Sequence record: PP359696.1
Length of the DNA: 64,000 nucleotides
Source of the DNA: Escherichia phage Ge15
Direction: 5' to 3' (one strand)
Part shown: positions 10,738 through 39,340 of the stretch, in pieces
Layout of the letters: each line of letters begins with the position of its first letter
Position numbering within the stretch: position 1 is the first letter of the stretch
Made by a program: the position numbers and the translations under genes
Notes under the pieces: generated by a model
Database searches by the model: none
What the model was told of the DNA's origin: nothing
Seen by the model: the letters and a program-made list of their open reading frames with translations, nothing else

Positions 10738-11597
10738 AGCCTACTATTTTGACTGATATTGATGGAGTATGTTTAAGCTGGCAATCAGGCCTTCCTTATT
10801 TTGCTCAGAAATATAATCTTCCGTTAGAACATATTTTAAAAATGATCCAAGATGAGAAATTTATTTCTCCGGGTAAACTCTTTAATTGTGATGAAGAACT
10901 TGGTGTCAAGTTAATTGAAAAATATAATCGATCAGATTTTATTCGTTATTTGTCTCCATATAAAGATGCACTGTGTGTAATTAACAAATTAAAAGAAGAT
11001 TATAATTTTGTAGCTGTTACAGCATTGGGTGATTCTATTGACGCTCTGTTGAATCGTCAATTTAATTTGAATGCTCTTTTTCCTGGTGCCTTCTCAGAAG
11101 TAATGATGTGTGGTCATGATTCTTCAAAAGAAGAGTTATTCAAAAAGGCAAAAGAGAAATATAACGTAATTTGTTATATTGACGATCTCGCTCACCATTG
11201 CGATCATGCGAGTGAAATATTAAATGTTCCTGTTTATTGGATGGCGCGAGGAGAGCGTGACAATATTCCAAAAACCGCTCAGCGAGTTTATACATGGAAT
11301 GATGTAGAAAATAAGCTTTTTTCGCCGAAGGAAAATAAAGAAAGTTTTGATAATGAAAAAGCTATAAAAGATGTAATTGAGAAGATGGTTAAAAACGATT
11401 CTTTTCGTTGGAACACTACCTGGAGAACTCCTGGATTTAATCCGTATAATCCATATTATACACATCCATATAATCCATATTATACACACCCGTATCATAT
11501 GAATCCATTCCATACGTGGAGTTATACTAAGCCTGGTGATGCAGGGTATTTTAATAGATTTACTAGTGGTGATAATATTTTCCAAGGAGCATTCTAA
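10734..11597 (+). CDS. HAD-superfamily hydrolase-like protein with C-terminal Pro/Tyr-rich repeats (30.2 position)
   Basis: 287 aa; N-terminal HAD motif I ILTDIDGV; C-terminal NPYNPYYTHPYNPYYTHPY repeats; its last 366 bp lie inside the duplicated segment. Confidence 0.7.
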   Translation: MKPTILTDIDGVCLSWQSGLPYFAQKYNLPLEHILKMIQDEKFISPGKLFNCDEELGVKLIEKYNRSDFIRYLSPYKDALCVINKLKEDYNFVAVTALGDSIDALLNRQFNLNALFPGAFSEVMMCGHDSSKEELFKKAKEKYNVICYIDDLAHHCDHASEILNVPVYWMARGERDNIPKTAQRVYTWNDVENKLFSPKENKESFDNEKAIKDVIEKMVKNDSFRWNTTWRTPGFNPYNPYYTHPYNPYYTHPYHMNPFHTWSYTKPGDAGYFNRFTSGDNIFQGAF

Positions 11598-11644
11598 TGT
11601 TTGTCGTTCACACTATTTATGAAAATGAAGGTAATACTACACGT
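11232..11644. repeat. 413-bp direct repeat, copy 1 (3' part of 30.2 plus first 16 codons of 30.1)
   Basis: Identical by eye to 13617-14029; identity stops on both sides at sharp junctions. Confidence 0.9.
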
Positions 11645-11683
11645 CCGTATAATCCATATTATACACATCCATATAATCCATAA
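11597..11683 (+). pseudogene. Truncated 30.1 start fused to repeat-derived sequence
   Basis: MFVVHTIYENEGNTTR (identical to the start of ORF 13982) followed by PYNPYYTHPYNP and a stop; reading frame broken by the insertion junction at 11644/11645. Confidence 0.7.
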
Positions 11684-12108
11684 TTTAATCCGTATAATCC
11701 ATATTATACACATCCTATAAAAAATTAAAATTAACCACAATAAGCGAATTGATTAAAAATATTTATTGTTCATTATCCGTCAGTAATCATCCCGGGCAAA
11801 TGCCCGGGAATTATTCTAGGATTATTTTCTTTGTTAAAAAAGACAAACGGTATTAACTGATGTATTTACTATTTACCGCTCCCTGCAGGGGGGATTATCA
11901 GAATCCGCGGTTATTCATTATTTATATACATTCAATAAAAAAGTAACCTCATAAAAAATCCTGTACTCACAGGGTGATGCGGGATAACTGACGTAAGGAG
12001 TGCTGCAGGGATTTGATTAGACTGGCCCCCTGAATCTCCAGACAACCAATATCACTTAAATAAGTGATAGTCTTAATACTAGTTTTTAGACTAGTCATTG
12101 GAGAACAG

Positions 12109-12474
12109 ATGATTGATGTCTTAGGGCCGGAGAAACGCAGACGGCGTACCACACAGGAAAAGATCGCAATTGTTCAGCAGAGCTTTGAACCGGGGATGAC
12201 GGTCTCCCTCGTTGCCCGGCAACATGGTGTAGCAGCCAGCCAGTTATTTCTCTGGCGTAAGCAATACCAGGAAGGAAGTCTTACTGCTGTCGCCGCCGGA
12301 GAACAGGTTGTTCCTGCCTCTGAACTTGCTGCCGCCATGAAGCAGATTAAAGAACTCCAGCGCCTGCTCGGCAAGAAAACGATGGAAAATGAACTCCTCA
12401 AAGAAGCCGTTGAATATGGACGGGCAAAAAAGTGGATAGCGCACGCGCCCTTATTGCCCGGGGATGGGGAGTAA
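12109..12474 (+). CDS. insC: IS2 OrfA (InsC) transposase DNA-binding subunit
   Basis: 121 aa [56 protein letters not shown]...; A6G slippery motif near the 3' end. Confidence 0.9.
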
Positions 12475-12480
12475 GCTTAG

Positions 12481-13143
12481 TCAGCCGTTGTCTCCGGGTG
12501 TGCCAAACGTGTTTACCGGATCATGCGCCAGAATGCGCTGTTGCTTGAGCGAAAACCTGCTGTACCGCCATCGAAACGGGCACATACAGGCAGAGTGGCC
12601 GTGAAAGAAAGCAATCAGCGATGGTGCTCTGACGGGTTCGAGTTCTGCTGTGATAACGGAGAGAGACTGCGTGTCACGTTCGCGCTGGACTGCTGTGATC
12701 GTGAGGCACTGCACTGGGCGGTCACTACCGGCGGCTTCAACAGTGAAACAGTACAGGACGTCATGCTGGGAGCGGTGGAACGCCGCTTCGGCAACGATCT
12801 TCCGTCGTCTCCAGTGGAGTGGCTGACGGATAATGGTTCATGCTACCGGGCTAATGAAACACGCCAGTTCGCCCGGATGTTGGGACTTGAACCGAAGAAC
12901 ACGGCGGTGCGGAGTCCGGAGAGTAACGGAATAGCAGAGAGCTTCGTGAAAACGATAAAGCGTGACTACATCAGTATCATGCCCAAACCAGACGGGTTAA
13001 CGGCAGCAAAGAACCTTGCAGAGGCGTTCGAGCATTATAACGAATGGCATCCGCATAGTGCGCTGGGTTATCGCTCGCCACGGGAATATCTGCGGCAGCG
13101 GGCTTGTAATGGGTTAAGTGATAACAGATGTCTGGAAATATAG
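12481..13143 (+). pseudogene. insD: IS2 OrfB (InsD) catalytic region, N-terminally truncated and out of the frameshift frame
   Basis: Open frame contains ...[41 protein letters not shown]...[12 protein letters not shown]; opens only after a TAG at 12478-12480 and is in the same phase as orfA instead of -1. Confidence 0.8.
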
Positions 13144-13616
13144 GGGCAAATCCAATAAACAATTGGAATTTACTTCCATTGATCTGTTTACTCAGTGGTT
13201 GTCACTTTTATCGAGAAAGGTTTGCAGAACGCGGGTTTTTTTATAAGGTTCCTGATGTACTGAGGGATTATTTATCAGCTATACCGCTGGAAATAAATGA
13301 AAAGGCACGATACAAACCCGGCATCGCTAACTATCACAATATCATCACATGTGGTTTTTCAACGTTGTTACCCTATATAAGGCACGGCACCATGACAAAT
13401 ACGGGTATTCGCGCCGATAACAACTTCACCTGCAGTTTCATCAATAATTACCTGGTCTGCAATCTGAATATTTTTCTCTTTAACATTAAGCTTCAGATAG
13501 TTTTTCAGTTCCTGTGACAGAAGGTTGGGAATAAGCGGTTGACGCTTCCACCAGTGCGGAATAGCGGGTGGGTTTGTCGCGCTGAGGTTCGCGTCCAGTA
13601 AAAAAGGCAATAAGTC

Positions 13617-14029
13617 GTTTATTGGATGGCGCGAGGAGAGCGTGACAATATTCCAAAAACCGCTCAGCGAGTTTATACATGGAATGATGTAGAAAATAAG
13701 CTTTTTTCGCCGAAGGAAAATAAAGAAAGTTTTGATAATGAAAAAGCTATAAAAGATGTAATTGAGAAGATGGTTAAAAACGATTCTTTTCGTTGGAACA
13801 CTACCTGGAGAACTCCTGGATTTAATCCGTATAATCCATATTATACACATCCATATAATCCATATTATACACACCCGTATCATATGAATCCATTCCATAC
13901 GTGGAGTTATACTAAGCCTGGTGATGCAGGGTATTTTAATAGATTTACTAGTGGTGATAATATTTTCCAAGGAGCATTCTAATGTTTGTCGTTCACACTA
14001 TTTATGAAAATGAAGGTAATACTACACGT
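13617..14029. repeat. 413-bp direct repeat, copy 2
   Basis: Identical by eye to 11232-11644. Confidence 0.9.
13626..13982 (+). pseudogene. 5'-truncated duplicate of the 30.2 3' region
   Basis: Encodes the same 118 C-terminal residues as ORF 10734-11597 (MARGERDNIPKTAQRVYTW...); lacks the HAD N-terminal domain and its own expression signals. Confidence 0.75.
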
Positions 14030-14251
14030 GATTACGGTCACGTAAATCAATTTTTTAGATGCAATCCAGAATTCCGAGCTCAAAAAGACGAACGAATTTT
14101 TAAAAAATGTGTAGAGCAAGGTTTCATTTACGTCAAGCACTGGATGCAAGGAAATAAAGTTAGAACTACATATCATAAGTCTTTGCCTGAGCTTAATGAT
14201 GAATTGATTTATAATAGAGCTGTAAACCAAACTTTGAAGGATGAGCAATGA
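13982..14251 (+). CDS. Hypothetical protein (30.1 position)
   Basis: 89-aa ORF; start overlaps the stop of the upstream frame (TAATG). Confidence 0.6.
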   Translation: MFVVHTIYENEGNTTRDYGHVNQFFRCNPEFRAQKDERIFKKCVEQGFIYVKHWMQGNKVRTTYHKSLPELNDELIYNRAVNQTLKDEQ

Positions 14252-15711
14252 TTCTTAAAATTCTGAATGAAATAGCATCTATTGGATCAACTAAACAGAA
14301 GCAAGCAATTCTTGAAAAGAATAAAGATAATGAATTGCTTAAACGGGTATATCGTCTGACTTATTCTCGTGGGTTACAGTATTATATCAAGAAATGGCCT
14401 AAACCTGGTATTGCTACCCAGAGTTTTGGAATGCTGACTATTACCGATATGCTTGACTTCATTGAATTCACGTTAGCTACTCGGAAATTGACCGGAAATG
14501 CTGCAATTGAGGAATTGACTGGATATATCACCGATGGTAAAAAGGATGATGTTGAAGTTTTGCGTCGAGTGATGATGCGAGACCTTGAATGCGGTGCTTC
14601 AGTATCTATTGCAAACAAAGTTTGGCCAGGTTTAATTCCTGAACAACCTCAAATGCTGGCAAGTTCTTATGATGAAAAGGGCATTAGTAAGAATATCAAA
14701 TTTCCAGCCTTTGCACAGTTAAAAGCAGATGGAGCCCGGTGTTTTGCTGAAGTTAGAGGCGATGAATTAGATGATGTTCGTCTTTTATCACGAGCTGGTA
14801 ATGAATATCTAGGATTAGATCTTCTTAAGGAAGAATTAATCAAAATGACTGCTGAAGCCCGCCAGATTCATCCAGAAGGTGTGTTAATTGATGGCGAATT
14901 GGTATACCATGAGCAAGTTAAAAAGGAACCAGAAGGCCTAGATTTTCTTTTTGATGCTTATCCTGAAATTAGTAAAGCTAAAGAATTCGCCGAAGTAGCG
15001 GAATCTCGTACTGCTTCTAATGGAATCGCCAATAAATCCTTAAAAGGAACCATTTCCGAAAAAGAAGCCAAATGCATGAAGTTTCAGGTCTGGGATTATG
15101 TCCCGTTGGTAGAAATATACGGTCTTCCGGCGTTTCGTTTAAAATATGATGTACGTTTTTCTAAACTAGAACAAATGACATCAGGATATGATAAAGTAAT
15201 TTTAATTGAAAACCAGGTAGTAAATAACCTAGATGAAGCTAAGGTAATTTATAAAAAATATATTGACCAAGGTCTTGAAGGTATTATTCTCAAAAATACC
15301 GATGGATTGTGGGAAAATGCTCGTTCAAAAAATCTCTATAAATTTAAAGAAGTAATTGATGTTGATTTAAAAATTGTAGGAATTTATCCTCACCGTAAAG
15401 ACCCTACTAAAGCAGGTGGATTTATTCTTGAATCAGAGTGTGGAAAAATTAAAGTAAATGCTGGTTCAGGCTTAAAAGATAAAGCCGGTGTAAAATCACA
15501 TGAACTTGACCGTACTCGCATTATGGAAAACCAAAATTATTATATTGGAAAAATTCTAGAGTGCGAATGCAACGGTTGGCTAAAATCTGATGGCCGCACT
15601 GATTACGTAAAATTATTTCTTCCAATTGCGATTCGTTTACGTGAAGATAAAACTAAAGCTAATACATTCGAGGATGTATTTGGTGATTTTCATGAGGTAA
15701 CTGGTCTATGA
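14248..15711 (+). CDS. 30: ATP-dependent DNA ligase
   Basis: 487 aa; adenylation motif KADGAR (Lys159); near-identical to recalled T4 DNA ligase. Confidence 0.96.
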   Translation: MILKILNEIASIGSTKQKQAILEKNKDNELLKRVYRLTYSRGLQYYIKKWPKPGIATQSFGMLTITDMLDFIEFTLATRKLTGNAAIEELTGYITDGKKDDVEVLRRVMMRDLECGASVSIANKVWPGLIPEQPQMLASSYDEKGISKNIKFPAFAQLKADGARCFAEVRGDELDDVRLLSRAGNEYLGLDLLKEELIKMTAEARQIHPEGVLIDGELVYHEQVKKEPEGLDFLFDAYPEISKAKEFAEVAESRTASNGIANKSLKGTISEKEAKCMKFQVWDYVPLVEIYGLPAFRLKYDVRFSKLEQMTSGYDKVILIENQVVNNLDEAKVIYKKYIDQGLEGIILKNTDGLWENARSKNLYKFKEVIDVDLKIVGIYPHRKDPTKAGGFILESECGKIKVNAGSGLKDKAGVKSHELDRTRIMENQNYYIGKILECECNGWLKSDGRTDYVKLFLPIAIRLREDKTKANTFEDVFGDFHEVTGL

Positions 15712-15896
15712 AAGCTTACTTAGAAACAATTGTCGTTGCTCAAAAAGAAGGTGGAGATGTTTCTACTTCTGTATCACAAATTATGATTGAATTTATAGAT
15801 GCATATGCTTATAATAAATTCGCAGAAACATTTGATGCCTATGAAAAAGGTCCAAAGTTTGAAATATATCGTACTCTCTTACCAATAGATTATTAA
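15708..15896 (+). CDS. Hypothetical protein
   Basis: 62-aa ORF coupled to ligase stop; followed by hairpin. Confidence 0.5.
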   Translation: MKAYLETIVVAQKEGGDVSTSVSQIMIEFIDAYAYNKFAETFDAYEKGPKFEIYRTLLPIDY

Positions 15897-15917
15897 AGGC
15901 CTTCGGGCCTTTAATTT
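15897..15917 (+). terminator. Hairpin terminator
   Basis: aggcc-ttcg-ggcct followed by T-rich ttaatttt. Confidence 0.55.
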
Positions 15918-15925
15918 TATAAATA
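15918..15925 (+). promoter_or_regulatory. Late promoter TATAAATA upstream of alt
   Basis: Exact TATAAATA about 20 nt upstream of the alt ATG, then SD gagagg. Confidence 0.65.
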
Positions 15926-15945
15926 GAATAAACACTAGAGAGGAT

Positions 15946-18042
15946 ATGATGGAACTCATTACAGAATTATTTGACGAAGATACTACTCTTCCGATTACAA
16001 ACTTAAATCCAAAGAAGAAAATACCACAAATTTTTTCAGTTCATGTTGATGACGCAATTGAACAACCAGGCTTTCGTTTATGTACCTATACATCTGGAGG
16101 TGATACTAATCGCGATTTAAAGATGGGCGATAAAATGATGCATATTGTTCCTTTTACATTAACTGCTAAAGGTTCAATTGCTAAATTAAAAGGTCTCGGT
16201 CCAAGCCCAATTAATTACATCAATTCAGTTTTTACTGTTGCGATGCAGACGATGCGTCAGTATAAAATTGATGCCTGTATGCTTCGTATTCTTAAGTCTA
16301 AAACTGCTGGTCAAGCTCGTCAAATTCAACTTATTGCTGATAGACTTATCCGCAGTCGTTCAGGTGGCAGATACGTCCTTCTTAAGGAACTCTGGGATTA
16401 CGATAAAAAGTATGCATATATTCTTATACATCGCAAAAATGTATCACTAGAAGACATTCCAGGAGTTCCAGAAATTAGCACCGAGCTCTTTACTAAAGTT
16501 GAATCAAAGGTTGGTGATGTTTATATCAATAAAGATACTGGAGCTCAAGTAACTAAAAATGAGGCAATTGCTGCATCTATTGCGCAAGAAAACGATAAAC
16601 GTTCTGACCAAGCTGTAATCGTTAAAGTTAAAATTTCCCGTAGAGCAATTGCACAAAGTCAATCATTAGAATCTTCTAGATTTGAAAGTGAATTATTCCA
16701 AAAGTATGAATCTACCGCAGCTAATTTCAATAAACCTGCTACGGCTCCTTTAATTCCCGAAGCAGAAGAAATGAAGCTTGGAATTAATTCATTAGCTTCT
16801 AAAACTAAAGCAGCAAAAATTATTGCTGAAGGAACTGCAGATGAACTTCATTATGACTATAAATTCTTTTCAAAAAGTGAGGTTAATGAAGTTTCTGAAA
16901 AAATTAAAGATGTAATTCTTAATGCGATTAAAAATGAACCAACTACTTCAATAAAATGTTTAGAGAAATACGCAGCAGCTGTTAATCAATTATTTGAAGA
17001 ATATAAAGATAATTGGCTTGATAAACATAATAAAACCCGTAAAGGACAGCCAGATGAAGTCTGGGAAGAAATGACTAAAAATTCCTGGAACGCAGCAAAA
17101 ACTAAATTCCTCAAAAGAATGATTTACAGCTTTTCTGGAATTGGTGCAGGTCCAATGATTGATATTACTATTGCCCGTGATGGTTCTAAATATACTCCAT
17201 CACAAAAGCGTGGCATTAGAGAGTATTGCGGTTCAGGATATACTGACATCAATAATCTTCTTTTAGGACGCTACAATCCAGAACGATATGATGTAATGAG
17301 TGAAAAAGAAATTGAATCTGCTATAAATAACTTAGATTCAGCTTTTGAAAATGGTGACCGTATACCAGAAGGCATTACAGTTTATCGTGCTCAAAGCATG
17401 ACTGCTCCTATATACGAAGCACTAGTTAAAAATAAAGTGTTCTATTTCAGAAATTTTGTATCTACTTCTTTAACTCCTATCATTTTTGGACGTTTTGGAA
17501 TTACGCATACTGGTATTGGTCTTTTAGAACCAGAAGCTCGTAATGAATTGACAGTTGATAAAAATGAAGAAGGAATAACTATTAATCCAAGCGAAATAAG
17601 AGCGTATAAAGAAAATCCTGAATACGTTAAAGTTCAAATAGGATGGGCAATTGATGGAGCTCATAAAGTTAATGTTGTATATCCAGGAAGTCTCGGAATA
17701 GCAACAGAAGCTGAAGTTATTCTACCACGAGGATTGATGGTCAAAGTTAATAAAATAACTGATGCTTCTAATAATGACGGAACAACATCTAATAATACAA
17801 AACTCATTCAAGCTGAAGTTATGACTACGGAAGAACTCACCGAATCAGTCATTTATGACGGTGACCGTCTAATGGAAACTGGTGAAGTAGTTGCAATGAC
17901 AGGTGATATTGAAATAGAAGACAGAGTTGACTTTGCATCATTTGTTTCATCAAATGTTAAACAAAAAGTAGAATCATCTCTTGGAATTATTGCGTCTTGC
18001 ATAGATATTACAAACATGCCTTACAAGTTCGTTCAAGGATAA
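15946..18042 (+). CDS. alt: Alt-type mono-ADP-ribosyltransferase, packaged in the head (paralog 1)
   Basis: 698 aa; N-terminal MELITE|LF capsid-targeting/gp21-cleavage-type sequence; C-terminal R (VYRAQ), STS (FVSTSL) and ExE (EAEVILPRG) motifs. Confidence 0.85.
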   Translation: MMELITELFDEDTTLPITNLNPKKKIPQIFSVHVDDAIEQPGFRLCTYTSGGDTNRDLKMGDKMMHIVPFTLTAKGSIAKLKGLGPSPINYINSVFTVAMQTMRQYKIDACMLRILKSKTAGQARQIQLIADRLIRSRSGGRYVLLKELWDYDKKYAYILIHRKNVSLEDIPGVPEISTELFTKVESKVGDVYINKDTGAQVTKNEAIAASIAQENDKRSDQAVIVKVKISRRAIAQSQSLESSRFESELFQKYESTAANFNKPATAPLIPEAEEMKLGINSLASKTKAAKIIAEGTADELHYDYKFFSKSEVNEVSEKIKDVILNAIKNEPTTSIKCLEKYAAAVNQLFEEYKDNWLDKHNKTRKGQPDEVWEEMTKNSWNAAKTKFLKRMIYSFSGIGAGPMIDITIARDGSKYTPSQKRGIREYCGSGYTDINNLLLGRYNPERYDVMSEKEIESAINNLDSAFENGDRIPEGITVYRAQSMTAPIYEALVKNKVFYFRNFVSTSLTPIIFGRFGITHTGIGLLEPEARNELTVDKNEEGITINPSEIRAYKENPEYVKVQIGWAIDGAHKVNVVYPGSLGIATEAEVILPRGLMVKVNKITDASNNDGTTSNNTKLIQAEVMTTEELTESVIYDGDRLMETGEVVAMTGDIEIEDRVDFASFVSSNVKQKVESSLGIIASCIDITNMPYKFVQG

Positions 18043-18045
18043 ATC

Positions 18046-20103
18046 ATGGAACTTATTACAGAATTATTTGACGGCGCTTCGGCGCCGGTTGTTAACTTAA
18101 ATCCTAAGCATAAAATACCTCAAATTTTTGCTATTCAAACCGGTGAAGAAAGCGTGCTTCCTGGATTTAGATTTTGTACATACACCTCTGGCGGTGATAC
18201 AAATAAAAACGTTAAGCCAGGCGATAAAATGATGCATATCGTAATGATAGGTGTTAATGAGAAACTATCATTAGTTAAACTTAAAAACTTGGGTGGAAAT
18301 CCAATTGGTGTCATTAATGCGGTTTTTGATACTGCTCTTCAAACAATGAAACAGTATAAAATTGACGCATGCCTATTCCGCGTACTAAAAAGTAAAACAA
18401 ATGGTGCAGCTCGTCAAATGCAAGTTATTGCTGACCGTTTAGTACGTACTAAAGGAGCAGGTCGATATGTTCTTTTAAAGGAAATCTGGGATTACGATAA
18501 AAAGTATGCATATATTATGGTTTACCGTAAAAATGCCAATTTAGAAGACATTCCAGGTGTACCTCCTATTTCAACTGAGTTATTCACAAAAGTTGAATCA
18601 AAGGTTGGTGATGTTTATGTAGATGTTAAAACAGGTAATGCTGTTCCTAAAGCTGTTGCTGTTGCTGCTTCTATTGCTTTAGAAAATGATAAGCGCACGG
18701 ATCAAGCTGTTATTCAGAAAACTAAAATTAGTCGTCGATTGGCAGCACAAGCTCAATATTCTACTGTCGATGCTTCGCTTCAGGGTGATAGCTTCGCTGC
18801 CAAGAAATATCAAGAGTTTGAATCTAAAGTTCCGGTATATAAAGCAGAAGGACCAATGAACTCTGGTGTTATTCAGATTGGTTCAAACTTCAGCAAAGGA
18901 GCTATCGGTGGTATGAGAAGTGCTTCTCGTTTTAAATCTAACGATTATGAACTAGAAAGCTTCCGAAATCATATTGCATTGGCTCATGCACGTTTACGTG
19001 ATCCGTCTATCAGACTGCAGAGCGATATAACACATCAAGGTTCTCAAGAATATTTAAAGAATAAAGAATTTTTTGATTATAAAACCGATAAAATTTTGAG
19101 CGATCTCGCTGACATTAATATTTCTAATAGCTTTGATGTTATTAAGAAAATTATCAATGATTTAGTTAAAGGTTCTAAAGCCACGCCAGACGAAAAGGTA
19201 GCTATTATTCAATTTGTTATGAATGGCATTTATAAATTGATTAATGAATCTGCTGCTCAGGCATATGAATACGCAAGCACCGAAGTAACTCCAAAAGGAT
19301 TAACTCAGGCTGAGTCTGATGTAATAGAAGATTATTGTGCAGATTCATATGTTGAAATGAACTCGTTCCTCTTGGGTAAACCAGATTCTACCCGTGAAGA
19401 ATACATGGAACGAGCTATTAAACACATCGAGACAATGGATTCTGCATTCGCTAAAGGTTCAGTTCTTCCTCCAGGAACTACGCTTTATCGTGGACAAGAA
19501 GTTACTTTTAAAACTTTACGTCATAATATTGAAAATAAAATGTTCTATTTCAAGAACTTCGTATCCACATCGCTTAAACCAAATATCTTCGGTGAGCATG
19601 GTAAAAACTATATGGCTCTAGATGATTCCGGCGCAGTATTTTCTGGCGAAGGAGAAGGTTCAGTTGATGCTGAAGATTTAATGCATATGGGTAGTCACTC
19701 TGCTTATGCGAATGAAGACGCTGAAACTAGCGTAGGTATGGTAATTAAAGGGGCTGAGCGAATCAAAGTTATCGTTCCAGGTCATTTATCAGGATTTCCA
19801 TCAGAAGCTGAAGTTATTTTACCGCGTGGAATTTTGCTGAAGATTAATAAAGTGAGCACGTACATGATGAAAGAAACTGCTTATAATAAGTATCTAATCG
19901 AAGGCACAATCGTTCCTCCTTCTGAACAATTAGAAGAATCGGTATATGATGGCGATCATCTAATGGAAACTGGTGAAGTTCGTCCAATGGCTGGGTTTAA
20001 TCAATTCCTTGTAGAAGAATCAAAAGAAGAGGAAAACGAAGTTTCTCAAATCTTGGCTTCTTTGGTTAACATCAACGGAATGTCTAAAAAGTTCAAGATG
20101 TAG
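18046..20103 (+). CDS. Alt-like mono-ADP-ribosyltransferase (paralog 2)
   Basis: 685 aa; same N-terminal MELITELFD and conserved first ~230 aa; divergent middle; retains R (LYRGQ), STS, ExE (EAEVILPRG). Confidence 0.8.
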   Translation: MELITELFDGASAPVVNLNPKHKIPQIFAIQTGEESVLPGFRFCTYTSGGDTNKNVKPGDKMMHIVMIGVNEKLSLVKLKNLGGNPIGVINAVFDTALQTMKQYKIDACLFRVLKSKTNGAARQMQVIADRLVRTKGAGRYVLLKEIWDYDKKYAYIMVYRKNANLEDIPGVPPISTELFTKVESKVGDVYVDVKTGNAVPKAVAVAASIALENDKRTDQAVIQKTKISRRLAAQAQYSTVDASLQGDSFAAKKYQEFESKVPVYKAEGPMNSGVIQIGSNFSKGAIGGMRSASRFKSNDYELESFRNHIALAHARLRDPSIRLQSDITHQGSQEYLKNKEFFDYKTDKILSDLADINISNSFDVIKKIINDLVKGSKATPDEKVAIIQFVMNGIYKLINESAAQAYEYASTEVTPKGLTQAESDVIEDYCADSYVEMNSFLLGKPDSTREEYMERAIKHIETMDSAFAKGSVLPPGTTLYRGQEVTFKTLRHNIENKMFYFKNFVSTSLKPNIFGEHGKNYMALDDSGAVFSGEGEGSVDAEDLMHMGSHSAYANEDAETSVGMVIKGAERIKVIVPGHLSGFPSEAEVILPRGILLKINKVSTYMMKETAYNKYLIEGTIVPPSEQLEESVYDGDHLMETGEVRPMAGFNQFLVEESKEEENEVSQILASLVNINGMSKKFKM

Positions 20104-20163: not shown

Positions 20164-20454
20164 ATGAAATCTTCTTTACGCTTTTTAGGTCAAGAACTTG
20201 TAGTTGAAGGCGTTATTCCTGCTGATAACGCTTTTAATGAAGCAGTTTATGATGAATTTATCAAAATTTTTGGAACAGATAAAAAGTTCGGAATTTTTCC
20301 TTCTGAAAATTTTTTAAAGCCAGAACAGACTGAAAGCATTTTCCAGGGTGTAGTAACAGGTAAATTTGAGTCAGAAGCTCCGGTAAAAATTGAAGTTTAT
20401 ATTGAAGACAGTTTAGTTGCTTCAGTTGCTGCTTTTATTTCATTCCGTAAATAA
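20164..20454 (+). CDS. Hypothetical acidic protein
   Basis: 96-aa ORF between the alt paralog and gene 54. Confidence 0.55.
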   Translation: MKSSLRFLGQELVVEGVIPADNAFNEAVYDEFIKIFGTDKKFGIFPSENFLKPEQTESIFQGVVTGKFESEAPVKIEVYIEDSLVASVAAFISFRK

Positions 20455-20460
20455 AAATAT

Positions 20461-20478
20461 GGGGACCGTTCGGTCCCC
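20461..20478. terminator. Hairpin at convergent gene boundary (plus ORF 20164 / minus gene 54)
   Basis: ggggacc-gttc-ggtcccc perfect stem; no long U-tract. Confidence 0.5.
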
Positions 20479-20482
20479 ATTG

Positions 20483-36277: not shown

Positions 36278-37843
36278 TTAGATACCTTTAACATATACAC
36301 GGCGGAAGTAAGCGTTTTTACCAAGGCTATTCAGAATAGAAGGCATACCGCTCTGGATGCGAGAAGCCGGAGCCTGAGCAGCGGATTCTGCAAATGGGTT
36401 GATACCGATACCGTAACGAGTTTTGAATCCCATTACTGGTTGGAAGTTCTTCGGATCGGAACCACGCAGCGGAGTCAGAGCTACATATGGAGCGTAGTAA
36501 ATACCAGCATCCATTTCGTTCGGACCTTTATAACCTACAGTGAAATAATCCTGTTTAGCATACTGGTCGATATATACACGGTATTTACCACCCAGAACAC
36601 CAGCAAATACTGACTTGGTAGTATCAGTGTTAAAGCCGGTAGCCAGACCCTGTGCAGCATAAGAAATGCCAGTATCAACTGAAGCCAGAACGTTAACTAC
36701 GTTACGGGAAGCGATAATGAAGTTACCTTCACCGCGACCGGTCTGACGAGCAATTTCAACTGCTTCTTTGTCAATCTGGAACAACAGAGCTTTAAAGGAT
36801 TCACCCGCCCAGCGAGCACCACGAATATCAATCGGATCCTGGAAGTCAAATACGCCAGCTTTAGAACCCGGAGTCAGGGTCATACCAGATTTACCAACCT
36901 GAGCTGAGTAATTAATCCAATCAACAACTTCGCGGTTGATTTCCAGCATGATTTCGGTAGCCAGAATACCAGACAGTTCAGCATCAGCATCCATACCGTG
37001 AACAGCGCGGAGGTCTTGTGCTAATTCGATAGAGTAAGCAGCTTTCAGCTGACGAGATTTAGCTTCGATAACTTGTTTATCGATACGGAAGCCCATTTCA
37101 TTCCATGGGTTATCGGTAGAACCGTTGAAACCTTCCTGAAGTTCAGCGATAGAAGTAGCCATACCTTCAGCGATTTCTACCAGTACACCAGCTTCCATTT
37201 GTTTCTTAACTTCGGCATCTAATTTAGTTGCATCAGTCGCGCCAGAATCAAGTGTTACGATAGCAGAAGCTTGCAGATATACAGTACCAGTTTCCTGGAA
37301 GAAGTGAGAATAGATGTCACCTACAACTGTAGTAGTATTAGCAGCCAAAGCTGGGAATTTCTTAGCAGCACCCTGACCAGAGAACATTGCATCTGGACCA
37401 TACATTGGGTGGAATGCTTCTTTAGCACCGGAAGCGATTGGGTCTTTACCATATACTGCGCGCAGTGCGAATACCTGACCAGTCGGGCTGTTCATCGGCT
37501 GAACACCGCAAATACCGAAAGCAATCAGGTTAGGAATAGCACGACGTACCATACCCATAACAGCTGGGCCAATCTGAGTTACTGCGCCAGAAGTCTGACC
37601 AGCAGCGATGTTAGTAGCGTTGTAACCGTGGTCACCACCGATTTCAGCTTCTGTTAAGAAAGAACCGAACGCCTGAGCGATTTTTTCGTCTTTGTACTCT
37701 GGAGCTGTCTGGAAATCTTTTTCCTGGTTTTCAAAGATTTTAGCGATAATCGCTTGTTTGCTATTAGCAATTTCCGGTAAACCTTCACCTTCCAGTAATG
37801 GTTTCCATTTGTTCAAAAGTTCAGCTTTAGTTTTGATAGTCAT
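36278..37843 (-). CDS. 23: Major capsid protein
   Basis: 521 aa MTIKTKAELLNKWKPLLEGEGLPEIANSKQAII...; matches recalled T4 gp23 precursor. Confidence 0.97.
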   Translation of the reverse strand: MTIKTKAELLNKWKPLLEGEGLPEIANSKQAIIAKIFENQEKDFQTAPEYKDEKIAQAFGSFLTEAEIGGDHGYNATNIAAGQTSGAVTQIGPAVMGMVRRAIPNLIAFGICGVQPMNSPTGQVFALRAVYGKDPIASGAKEAFHPMYGPDAMFSGQGAAKKFPALAANTTTVVGDIYSHFFQETGTVYLQASAIVTLDSGATDATKLDAEVKKQMEAGVLVEIAEGMATSIAELQEGFNGSTDNPWNEMGFRIDKQVIEAKSRQLKAAYSIELAQDLRAVHGMDADAELSGILATEIMLEINREVVDWINYSAQVGKSGMTLTPGSKAGVFDFQDPIDIRGARWAGESFKALLFQIDKEAVEIARQTGRGEGNFIIASRNVVNVLASVDTGISYAAQGLATGFNTDTTKSVFAGVLGGKYRVYIDQYAKQDYFTVGYKGPNEMDAGIYYAPYVALTPLRGSDPKNFQPVMGFKTRYGIGINPFAESAAQAPASRIQSGMPSILNSLGKNAYFRRVYVKGI

Positions 37844-38701: not shown

Positions 38702-39340
38702 TTATAACGCTTTTTTCATGGCCTCTGCGAGAGCCATATAGGCGTCATCGGCACTTGTATCGGCTTCCGCCGTCTGTGATTCGGTAATTTCCTTAGGAGT
38801 TACCCATGCATCTGGAGCACTTGGACCCCATACTGCATCAACACCTACAGTTAATTTGAATCCTTCGTTTACGATACGATAACCTTTATTTGTGTCAGTC
38901 AATGAACCTAATCCACGAGAAGAAACTCCTGGAATCCATCCGGCACGAATATTAGCTGCTAATTTATCTCCAGGACCATGGTCACCTTCAATAACACGAG
39001 CTCGTCCGTATACGTCATTTCCTTTCCACCACATATCTTCTATAATGATAGCGGCTTGCATCGGGTCAACATTAGCGCGTGGAGGATGATTTAATTCTCC
39101 GAGAGCTTGTTTAGTTAAAACTTGCTCATTAATATAGTCTTTTACCGCTTTTTCTAATATACGTTTTGGATAAAGACGTTTATTTCTATTGACGACTTCT
39201 GCTTGCATGAATATTCCTTCGATGTATAAACCAGGTTTTAAACCTAAGTCTTTCCCATCATGGGATTCAAGCATTGGCACACCATCAATAATTTCGCCAG
39301 GTTGACCCCAAGTTTCAATTAGCAATTGGGGTTCATTCAT
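38702..39340 (-). CDS. 21: Prohead core protease
   Basis: 212 aa; synteny and length as T4 gp21. Confidence 0.9.
   Translation of the reverse strand: MNEPQLLIETWGQPGEIIDGVPMLESHDGKDLGLKPGLYIEGIFMQAEVVNRNKRLYPKRILEKAVKDYINEQVLTKQALGELNHPPRANVDPMQAAIIIEDMWWKGNDVYGRARVIEGDHGPGDKLAANIRAGWIPGVSSRGLGSLTDTNKGYRIVNEGFKLTVGVDAVWGPSAPDAWVTPKEITESQTAEADTSADDAYMALAEAMKKAL

Follow-up and report, generated by a model that had tools for sequence, protein, structure and literature searches.

Two tandem Alt-type ADP-ribosyltransferase genes in Escherichia phage Ge15 and the probable remnant of the second one in phage T4

In phage T4, about 40 copies of the ADP-ribosyltransferase Alt are carried in each head and ejected, and the enzyme ADP-ribosylates the alpha subunit of RNA polymerase (PMC9026906, PMC9503650). 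Mass spectrometry has established that the T4 protease gp21 cuts Alt at ITE-6, with the removal of six residues, and at LTE-619, with the removal of 63, yielding a protein of 68.2 kDa (PMC5694885), and the role of gp21 cleavage in the maturation of T4 Alt has been also described in another work (PMC9026906). The E577A mutant of T4 Alt is inactive (PMC11404850). The alt locus of Escherichia phage Ge15 (sequence record PP359696.1) has been analysed here in a stretch of 64,000 nucleotides (nt), hereafter the window, which contains two full-length alt genes placed in tandem, designated copy 1 and copy 2. The arrangement resembles that of phage 44RR, a member of another genus in which a second full-length paralogue (ORF187c) lies beside alt (Nolan et al. 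2006); this likeness is taken from the published description, which in 2006 reported both the 44RR duplication and the relation of T4 alt.-1 and alt.-2 to alt (PMC1524935).

The window is a segment of a T4-like (Tequatrovirus) genome with the gene order 30, alt.1, alt, alt copy 2 and alt.-3, followed by the convergent tail genes 54, 48 and 29, and a tblastn search of the window with the copy 2 protein has detected exactly two copies, copy 1 and copy 2. The location between gene 30/alt.1 and alt.-3/54, together with the presence of a late promoter, is that of Alt-type genes. The gene order 30, alt.1, alt, alt.-2, alt.-3 and convergent 54 of T2 (AP018813, EcT2_00209/00208) and T6 (MH550421, AXN58233/AXN58232) is identical to that of the window, and the same pair of 2094-nt and 2058-nt genes, encoding 697 and 685 amino acids (aa), is present in T6, T2 and ime09, from which the window differs by 9-16 amino-acid-changing differences per gene and in nothing substantial. 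A megablast search with the locus matched 540 phage records, in 350 of which the coverage was 80% or more. Two Alt-like ADP-ribosyltransferases are annotated in most records, and the best match was phage PinkRuby (98.7%). The part of copy 2 that is missing in T4 was found in 401 records, and the copy 2 protein cluster at 90% identity has 772 members. The Alt N-terminal domain was found at 1,816 places in 1,201 phage records, counts which indicate that the second copy is common in Tequatrovirus, occurs in some other genera and is absent from many; outside Tequatrovirus it is carried by phage dhabil and Aeromonas phage AS4.

The two-gene arrangement is standard for T2/T6-type Tequatrovirus and already known at annotation level. 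The initial annotation, made from the letters of the window, had implied that a pair of alt genes was new with respect to T4. Comparison with the T4 locus bears this out in one respect, since T4 does not have two full-length genes, whereas T2 and T6 have both, with identical lengths; with the full-length pair present in T2, T6 and about 400 records, most of them annotated, and the 44RR duplication published in 2006, the implied novelty had to be abandoned. The value of the pair as a discovery is small, as it stands in GenBank hundreds of times, T2 and T6 included. No work on the function of the second copy was found in a literature search that covered alt.-2 and Alt-like paralogues as well as gpAlt and the proteomics of virions.

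By their sequences, both copies look like active Alt enzymes. The PF03496 profile, with a curated cut-off of 23.4 bits, matched copy 1 with 129 bits and copy 2 with 72.8 bits, both above that value, and the phrog_802 profile ('Alt-like RNA polymerase ADP-ribosyltransferase') matched them end-to-end with 906 and 851 bits, respectively. In the HMMER alignments the R of the Alt proteins stands opposite the catalytic Arg of VIP2/CDTa, and EAEVIL stands opposite GFASEKEILL/GYAGEYEVLL; R482, S507, S509, E587 and E589 were invariant in a family alignment of 24 sequences. The R / S-T-S / E-x-E motifs are kept in both proteins, as the initial annotation had read them, and the loss of a motif, which it had named as an argument against activity, was found in neither. 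Within the C3/VIP2 clade, E-x-E is the arginine-specific signature.

Structure prediction covered copy 2, and its AlphaFold model (predicted local distance difference test score, pLDDT, 75) consists of an alpha/beta N-terminal domain, a long helical region, a core with the ADP-ribosyltransferase fold and a disordered tail. Foldseek matched the core of this model to Vis, C3 (C3bot), VIP2, CDTa and iota Ia with probability 1.0, with E values of 1e-7 to 1e-5 against Vis, C3bot, VIP2 and CDTa. The catalytic fold and the R / STS / ExE residues are common to the Alt pair and these R-S-E toxins of Clostridium and Bacillus (PF03496), with an identity of only 16-20%; the Alt proteins differ from the toxins by an extra phage-specific N-terminal domain of 238 residues, a helical region of about 180 residues, an insertion of 45-60 residues after STS and cleavable termini. 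No NCBIfam family matched either Alt protein, the N-terminal domain was left unmatched by Pfam, where the two central regions gave sub-threshold noise only, and a sequence search of the PDB with full-length copy 2 gave no matches. Relatives carry PF26846 together with PF03496.

Among the window, ime09, T2 and T6, the ratio of nonsynonymous to synonymous substitution rates (dN/dS) was 0.015-0.05 for both genes, and no frameshift was found in copy 2. By this measure both genes are under strong purifying selection, and copy 2 is a maintained gene and not a decaying duplicate. Its classification as a pseudogene was considered and rejected, because the open reading frame is intact and constrained.

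The T4 locus has a different history. In T4, alt (682 aa) precedes two small genes, alt.-1 (61 aa) and alt.-2 (67 aa), which match residues 1-54 and 62-116 of copy 2 almost exactly. The corresponding profiles, phrog_23015 and phrog_15247, scored 135 and 131 bits with copy 2 versus 78 and 70 bits with copy 1, and sequence similarity identifies copy 2 as the orthologue of T4 alt.-1/alt.-2. The T4 DNA is collinear with the window up to position 18393 and again from 20084, with an identity of 92.4% across the end of copy 1 and the start of copy 2 and of 95.9% after the deletion, and it is one A short in the A-run near 18205-18209, at about codon 54 of copy 2, which amounts to a 1-nt frameshift. 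As read from this alignment, T4 alt.-1/alt.-2 (NC_000866, 9066-9451) is the wreck of a full-length gene, produced by the frameshift and by a deletion between CTAAAAAGT repeats. The T4 record explains alt.-1 and alt.-2 as an 'old duplication of first part of alt', an explanation that was rejected because the deletion junction is evident in the alignment, and the 'apparent insertion in alt.-2' by which the T6 record accounts for the full gene is contradicted by the same alignment, in which T4 carries the deletion. Two database notes are corrected in this way: T4 alt.-1/alt.-2 is a deletion remnant, and the T6 gene is not an insertion into alt.-2. The junction of the T4 deletion is spanned by 91 records, among them natural isolates such as RB55, RB59 and HY03; it is a lineage marker and not a laboratory artefact.

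The two copies are 41% identical overall (BLASTP, E = 2e-156), but this identity is very unevenly distributed. In copy 2 numbering, the first nine residues (MELITELFD) are 100% identical, residues 1-238 are 67%, residues 239-415 are 15%, residues 416-625 are 35% and residues 626-685 are 42% identical. At the DNA level, 26 of the first 27 nt are the same, versus 68% identity for the entire N-terminal domain. The conserved first 230 or so residues and the diverged centre described in the initial annotation were confirmed by this pairwise alignment. The most variable parts of Alt are the helical region 239-415 and the 45-60 residue insertion between STS and ExE, which could not be aligned between the paralogues. 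In C3-like enzymes, this insertion site lies near the cleft for nicotinamide adenine dinucleotide (NAD) and the substrate.

A comparable discontinuity separates the alleles of copy 1. T4 Alt (NP_049811, 682 aa) has the same position, propeptide motifs, late promoter and upstream hairpin as copy 1, with 99% identity over residues 1-244 and about 88% over the final 110 residues or so, and between these ends lies a cassette of low identity (Table 1). The cassette spans the central helical region and almost all of the catalytic domain and has sharp edges, the right one at the ExE motif, a shape which suggests recombinational exchange of a module. Records with the T2/T6/window type of cassette number 335, those with the T4 type 175, and T4 alt is the minority allele. 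There are accordingly three deeply diverged central/catalytic modules (two copy 1 alleles and copy 2) on a conserved N- and C-terminal scaffold; within each type the module varies very little, and this pattern suggests, as we infer from the alignments, different substrate ranges that may be exchanged by recombination.

With regard to head targeting, the assignment of a capsid-targeting N-terminus to both proteins was upheld, as ITE-6 is identical in copy 1, copy 2 and T4. When the T4 sites ITE-6 and LTE-619 were applied to the T4 Alt sequence, a mass of 68,245 Da was obtained, which matches the published 68.2 kDa, and therefore the site mapping is right; the predicted mature sizes are 70.1 kDa for copy 1 and 69.1 kDa for copy 2. 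The C-terminal LEE of copy 2 fits the gp21 motif L-x-E, and a YDGD(H/R)LMETGE block is conserved after the C-terminal site in copy 1, copy 2 and T4 Alt. In the copy 2 model, residues 629-685 are disordered (pLDDT about 33), as expected for a propeptide. By analogy with T4 Alt, we infer that copy 2 is packaged and cleaved.

The transcription of the pair has been examined in the same way. The two genes lie on the + strand with an intergenic gap of 3 nt, the AAGGA of copy 2 is inside the end of copy 1, and the terminator scan listed no terminator-like site on the + strand between them; on these grounds the co-transcription of both copies, already proposed in the initial annotation, is well supported. 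The same annotation had assigned an obvious late promoter to the first gene only. The box in front of copy 1 (15918-15925) stands, but a second exact TATAAATA at 17322-17329 had been missed. This internal box is kept in T2, T6 and ime09, is absent from the T4 allele and lies in conserved coding sequence (codons A-I-N-N); judged from its sequence, a role as promoter of copy 2 is possible. Late promoter boxes number 19 in the window versus 8.4 expected. A conserved predicted terminator has been described upstream of alt (PMC1524935); the hairpin located there by reading was not listed in the scan for the terminator consensus.

The adjacent open reading frames of 698 and 685 aa, both with MELITELFD, that had been described initially were recovered with a single change in the start of the first. 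An alternative ATG at 15946 would give copy 1 a length of 698 aa (MMELITELFD). Its ribosome-binding site is GAGAGGA (15938-15944), with GAGG 5 nt before the ATG at 15949 and 2 nt before that at 15946, and the ATGATG is also present in T4, T2, T6 and ime09, where the second ATG is the annotated start. Because of this spacing and of these annotations, copy 1 is best taken as 15949-18042, with 697 aa. The start of the alt.1 homologue overlaps the end of gene 30.

Table 1. Features of the alt locus and related elements of the window (positions in the window; residue numbers refer to each protein)
Feature	Position	Strand	Evidence or remarks
DNA ligase gene 30	14248-15711		
alt.1 homologue, 62 aa	15708..15896	+	phrog_1976, 118 bits; alt.1 of T4, T6 and ime09 at matching place
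Hairpin AAAGGCC-TTCG-GGCCTTT followed by AATTTT, directly after alt.1 stop; probable terminator	15895..15912	+	By reading; identical in T4, T2, T6 and ime09
T4-type late promoter box TATAAATA, 23 nt upstream of copy 1	15918..15925	+	Conserved in T4, T2, T6 and ime09
alt copy 1, 697 aa, T2/T6-type allele, putative arginine ADP-ribosyltransferase Alt	15949..18042	+	PF03496, phrog_802
Copy 1 N-terminal propeptide MELITE, predicted gp21 motif ITE-6, capsid-targeting end	15949..15966	+	Six residues the same as in T4 Alt
Copy 1 central helical and catalytic cassette, about 1 kb	16688..17712	+	37-51% aa identity to T4 alt; flanking DNA 96% and 92% identical
Further exact TATAAATA within copy 1, some 720 nt upstream of copy 2; possible internal late promoter	17322..17329	+	
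Copy 1 predicted catalytic Arg480 (VYRAQ)	17386..17388	+	Aligned to CDTa TVYR
Copy 1 S505-T-S507 (FVSTSL)	17461..17469	+	
Copy 1 E587-A-E589, predicted catalytic motif	17707..17715	+	Aligned to CDTa GYAGEYEVLL
Copy 1 LTE-632, predicted C-terminal site; 65-aa propeptide after it	17836..17844	+	Counterpart of T4 Alt LTE-619
Shine-Dalgarno AAGGA of copy 2, within final codons of copy 1	18035..18039	+	Junction identical in T4, T2, T6 and ime09
alt copy 2, 685 aa, putative second Alt-family ADP-ribosyltransferase; full-length form of T4 alt.-1/alt.-2	18046..20103	+	PF03496, phrog_802, phrog_23015, phrog_15247
Copy 2 N-terminal MELITE (ITE-6 motif)	18046..18063	+	Identical to copy 1 and T4
Segment bounded by two 9-bp CTAAAAAGT repeats (18385-18393 and 20084-20092)	18385..20092	+	1,699 bp missing here in T4
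Copy 2 predicted catalytic Arg482 (LYRGQ)	19489..19491	+	HMMER and family alignment
Copy 2 S507-T-S509	19564..19572	+	Family alignment
Copy 2 E587-A-E589	19804..19812	+	HMMER and family alignment
Copy 2 LEE-631, predicted C-terminal site; 54 residues after it, predicted disordered	19930..19938	+	Aligned with T4 LTE-619
alt.-3 homologue, 96 aa, final gene of transcription unit	20164..20454	+	phrog_1739, 150 bits
9-bp G+C-rich hairpin, strong bidirectional terminator-like site between alt.-3 and convergent gene 54	20459..20480		Terminator scan
gp21 prohead protease, 212 aa, expected remover of both propeptides	38702..39340	-	Assigned from length and position beside genes 22-23-24

Taken together, it is very probable that the locus encodes two head-packaged, gp21-processed and injected arginine ADP-ribosyltransferases, expressed from one late unit and with partly different substrates, and that T4 has lost the second. 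In this scheme, both copies of alt and alt.-3 would form one late transcription unit, with the promoter at 15918 as its start and the hairpin at 20459 as its end, and both Alt proteins would enter the prohead core, by analogy with T4 Alt. The protease gp21 would remove MELITE after Glu-6 from each, and, by cutting after LTE-632 in copy 1 and LEE-631 in copy 2, also a C-terminal propeptide of some 54-65 residues, leaving enzymes of about 70 and 69 kDa, which would be injected with the DNA and would draw on NAD+ to modify proteins of the host, for example the alpha subunit of RNA polymerase. Packaging and ejection would be the task of both termini and of the conserved N-terminal domain, which has about 238 residues, and the diverged central helical region and the STS-to-ExE insertion would set different substrate ranges for copy 1, copy 2 and the T4 allele. 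The loss in T4 would have occurred by the frameshift and the 1.7-kb deletion between 9-bp repeats, leaving alt.-1 and alt.-2. Two injected enzymes with possibly different targets had also been proposed initially, and at the level of motifs, PF03496 matches, purifying selection and gp21 sites the proposal holds, both products having the appearance of functional enzymes directed to the head whose targets may differ. A more specific proposal, to which we attach about as much belief as doubt, is that the host targets of copy 2 ('Alt2'), as a second injected ADP-ribosyltransferase, are unlike those of Alt, for instance a component of defence, toxin-antitoxin systems or translation, and that its deletion in the T4 lineage has kept it from being studied.

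Several points weigh against the interpretation of two injected enzymes with partly different substrates. The T4-lineage phages (91 records) manage without copy 2, which is dispensable on at least some hosts; the C-terminal motif of copy 2 is LEE and not LTE; and the searchable literature gave nothing direct on copy 2 in virions or on its cleavage, activity or separate targets. The survival of the T4 lineage would also agree with a redundant copy 2 that shares its targets with copy 1 and does no more than add to the amount of enzyme injected, as would the catalytic motifs, termini and operon, which are alike in both copies. This redundancy is considered unlikely, since only 15% of the central residues and 35% of those in the catalytic domain are identical between the paralogues and the STS-to-ExE insertion cannot be aligned, yet each orthologue group is tightly conserved (dN/dS 0.03-0.05), a combination which fits two maintained distinct functions better than dosage.

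The fate of the copy 2 protein might also differ from that of Alt. It could be a late but unpackaged protein that acts in the infected cell, or an enzyme for a target other than arginine, by attachment of RNA or modification of nucleic acid; T4 ModB, also an R-S-E ADP-ribosyltransferase, is reported to attach NAD-capped RNA to proteins. Both variants appear very unlikely in view of the first nine residues, identical to the targeting and cleavage end of Alt, of the 67% identity of the N-terminal domain, of the conserved C-terminal cleavage position and YDGDHLMETGE block, and of the generally known arginine specificity of E-x-E in the C3/VIP2 clade. A role of copy 2 mainly as a structural or internal head protein, for which enzyme activity would be irrelevant, has a precedent in T4 Alt, described as a component of the prohead core as well as an enzyme (PMC11404850), and decay of the gene has one in T4 itself, where it proved losable. 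Both are the most improbable of the readings considered, because the catalytic residues are invariant across the family, PF03496 is matched well above its threshold, and copy 2 is free of frameshifts and under strong purifying selection in the window, ime09, T2 and T6.

If copy 2 does differ from Alt in its host targets, then, together with the two copy 1 alleles, three or more interchangeable cassettes of substrate specificity would be in circulation among the Tequatroviruses on a packaging scaffold that stays the same. T4 is atypical, in that two different Alt enzymes are probably injected by most T-even phages and T4 alt is itself a minority allele; what T4 alt mutants have taught about host takeover may therefore not hold for the relatives of T4.

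Other observations concern the remaining parts of the window. Upstream of the ligase gene, gene 30.2 contains an insert of 1,972 bp (11645-13616) that none of the 627 matching phage records has; 413 bp of gene 30.2 are directly duplicated and stand on either side of it (11232-11644 and 13617-14029). The G+C content of the insert is 0.53-0.58 over about 12100-13100 (IS2 core), and most of it (11781-13616) is made up of E. coli chromosomal segments that are not linked to each other. Identity to K-12 is 100% for 11781-12017, beside an integrase gene, for 12018-13156, an IS2 that lacks 193 bp internally, and for 13384-13616, which corresponds to yaiP/yaiX; the segment 13157-13383 matches a type III secretion gene (OrgA/MxiK), present in many E. 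coli strains, with 99.6% identity. The insert is either an assembly chimera formed through IS2 repeats or a genuine capture of host DNA by a T-even phage. A second G+C-rich stretch (36278-37843, 0.44-0.50) is the major capsid gene 23 and is ordinary.

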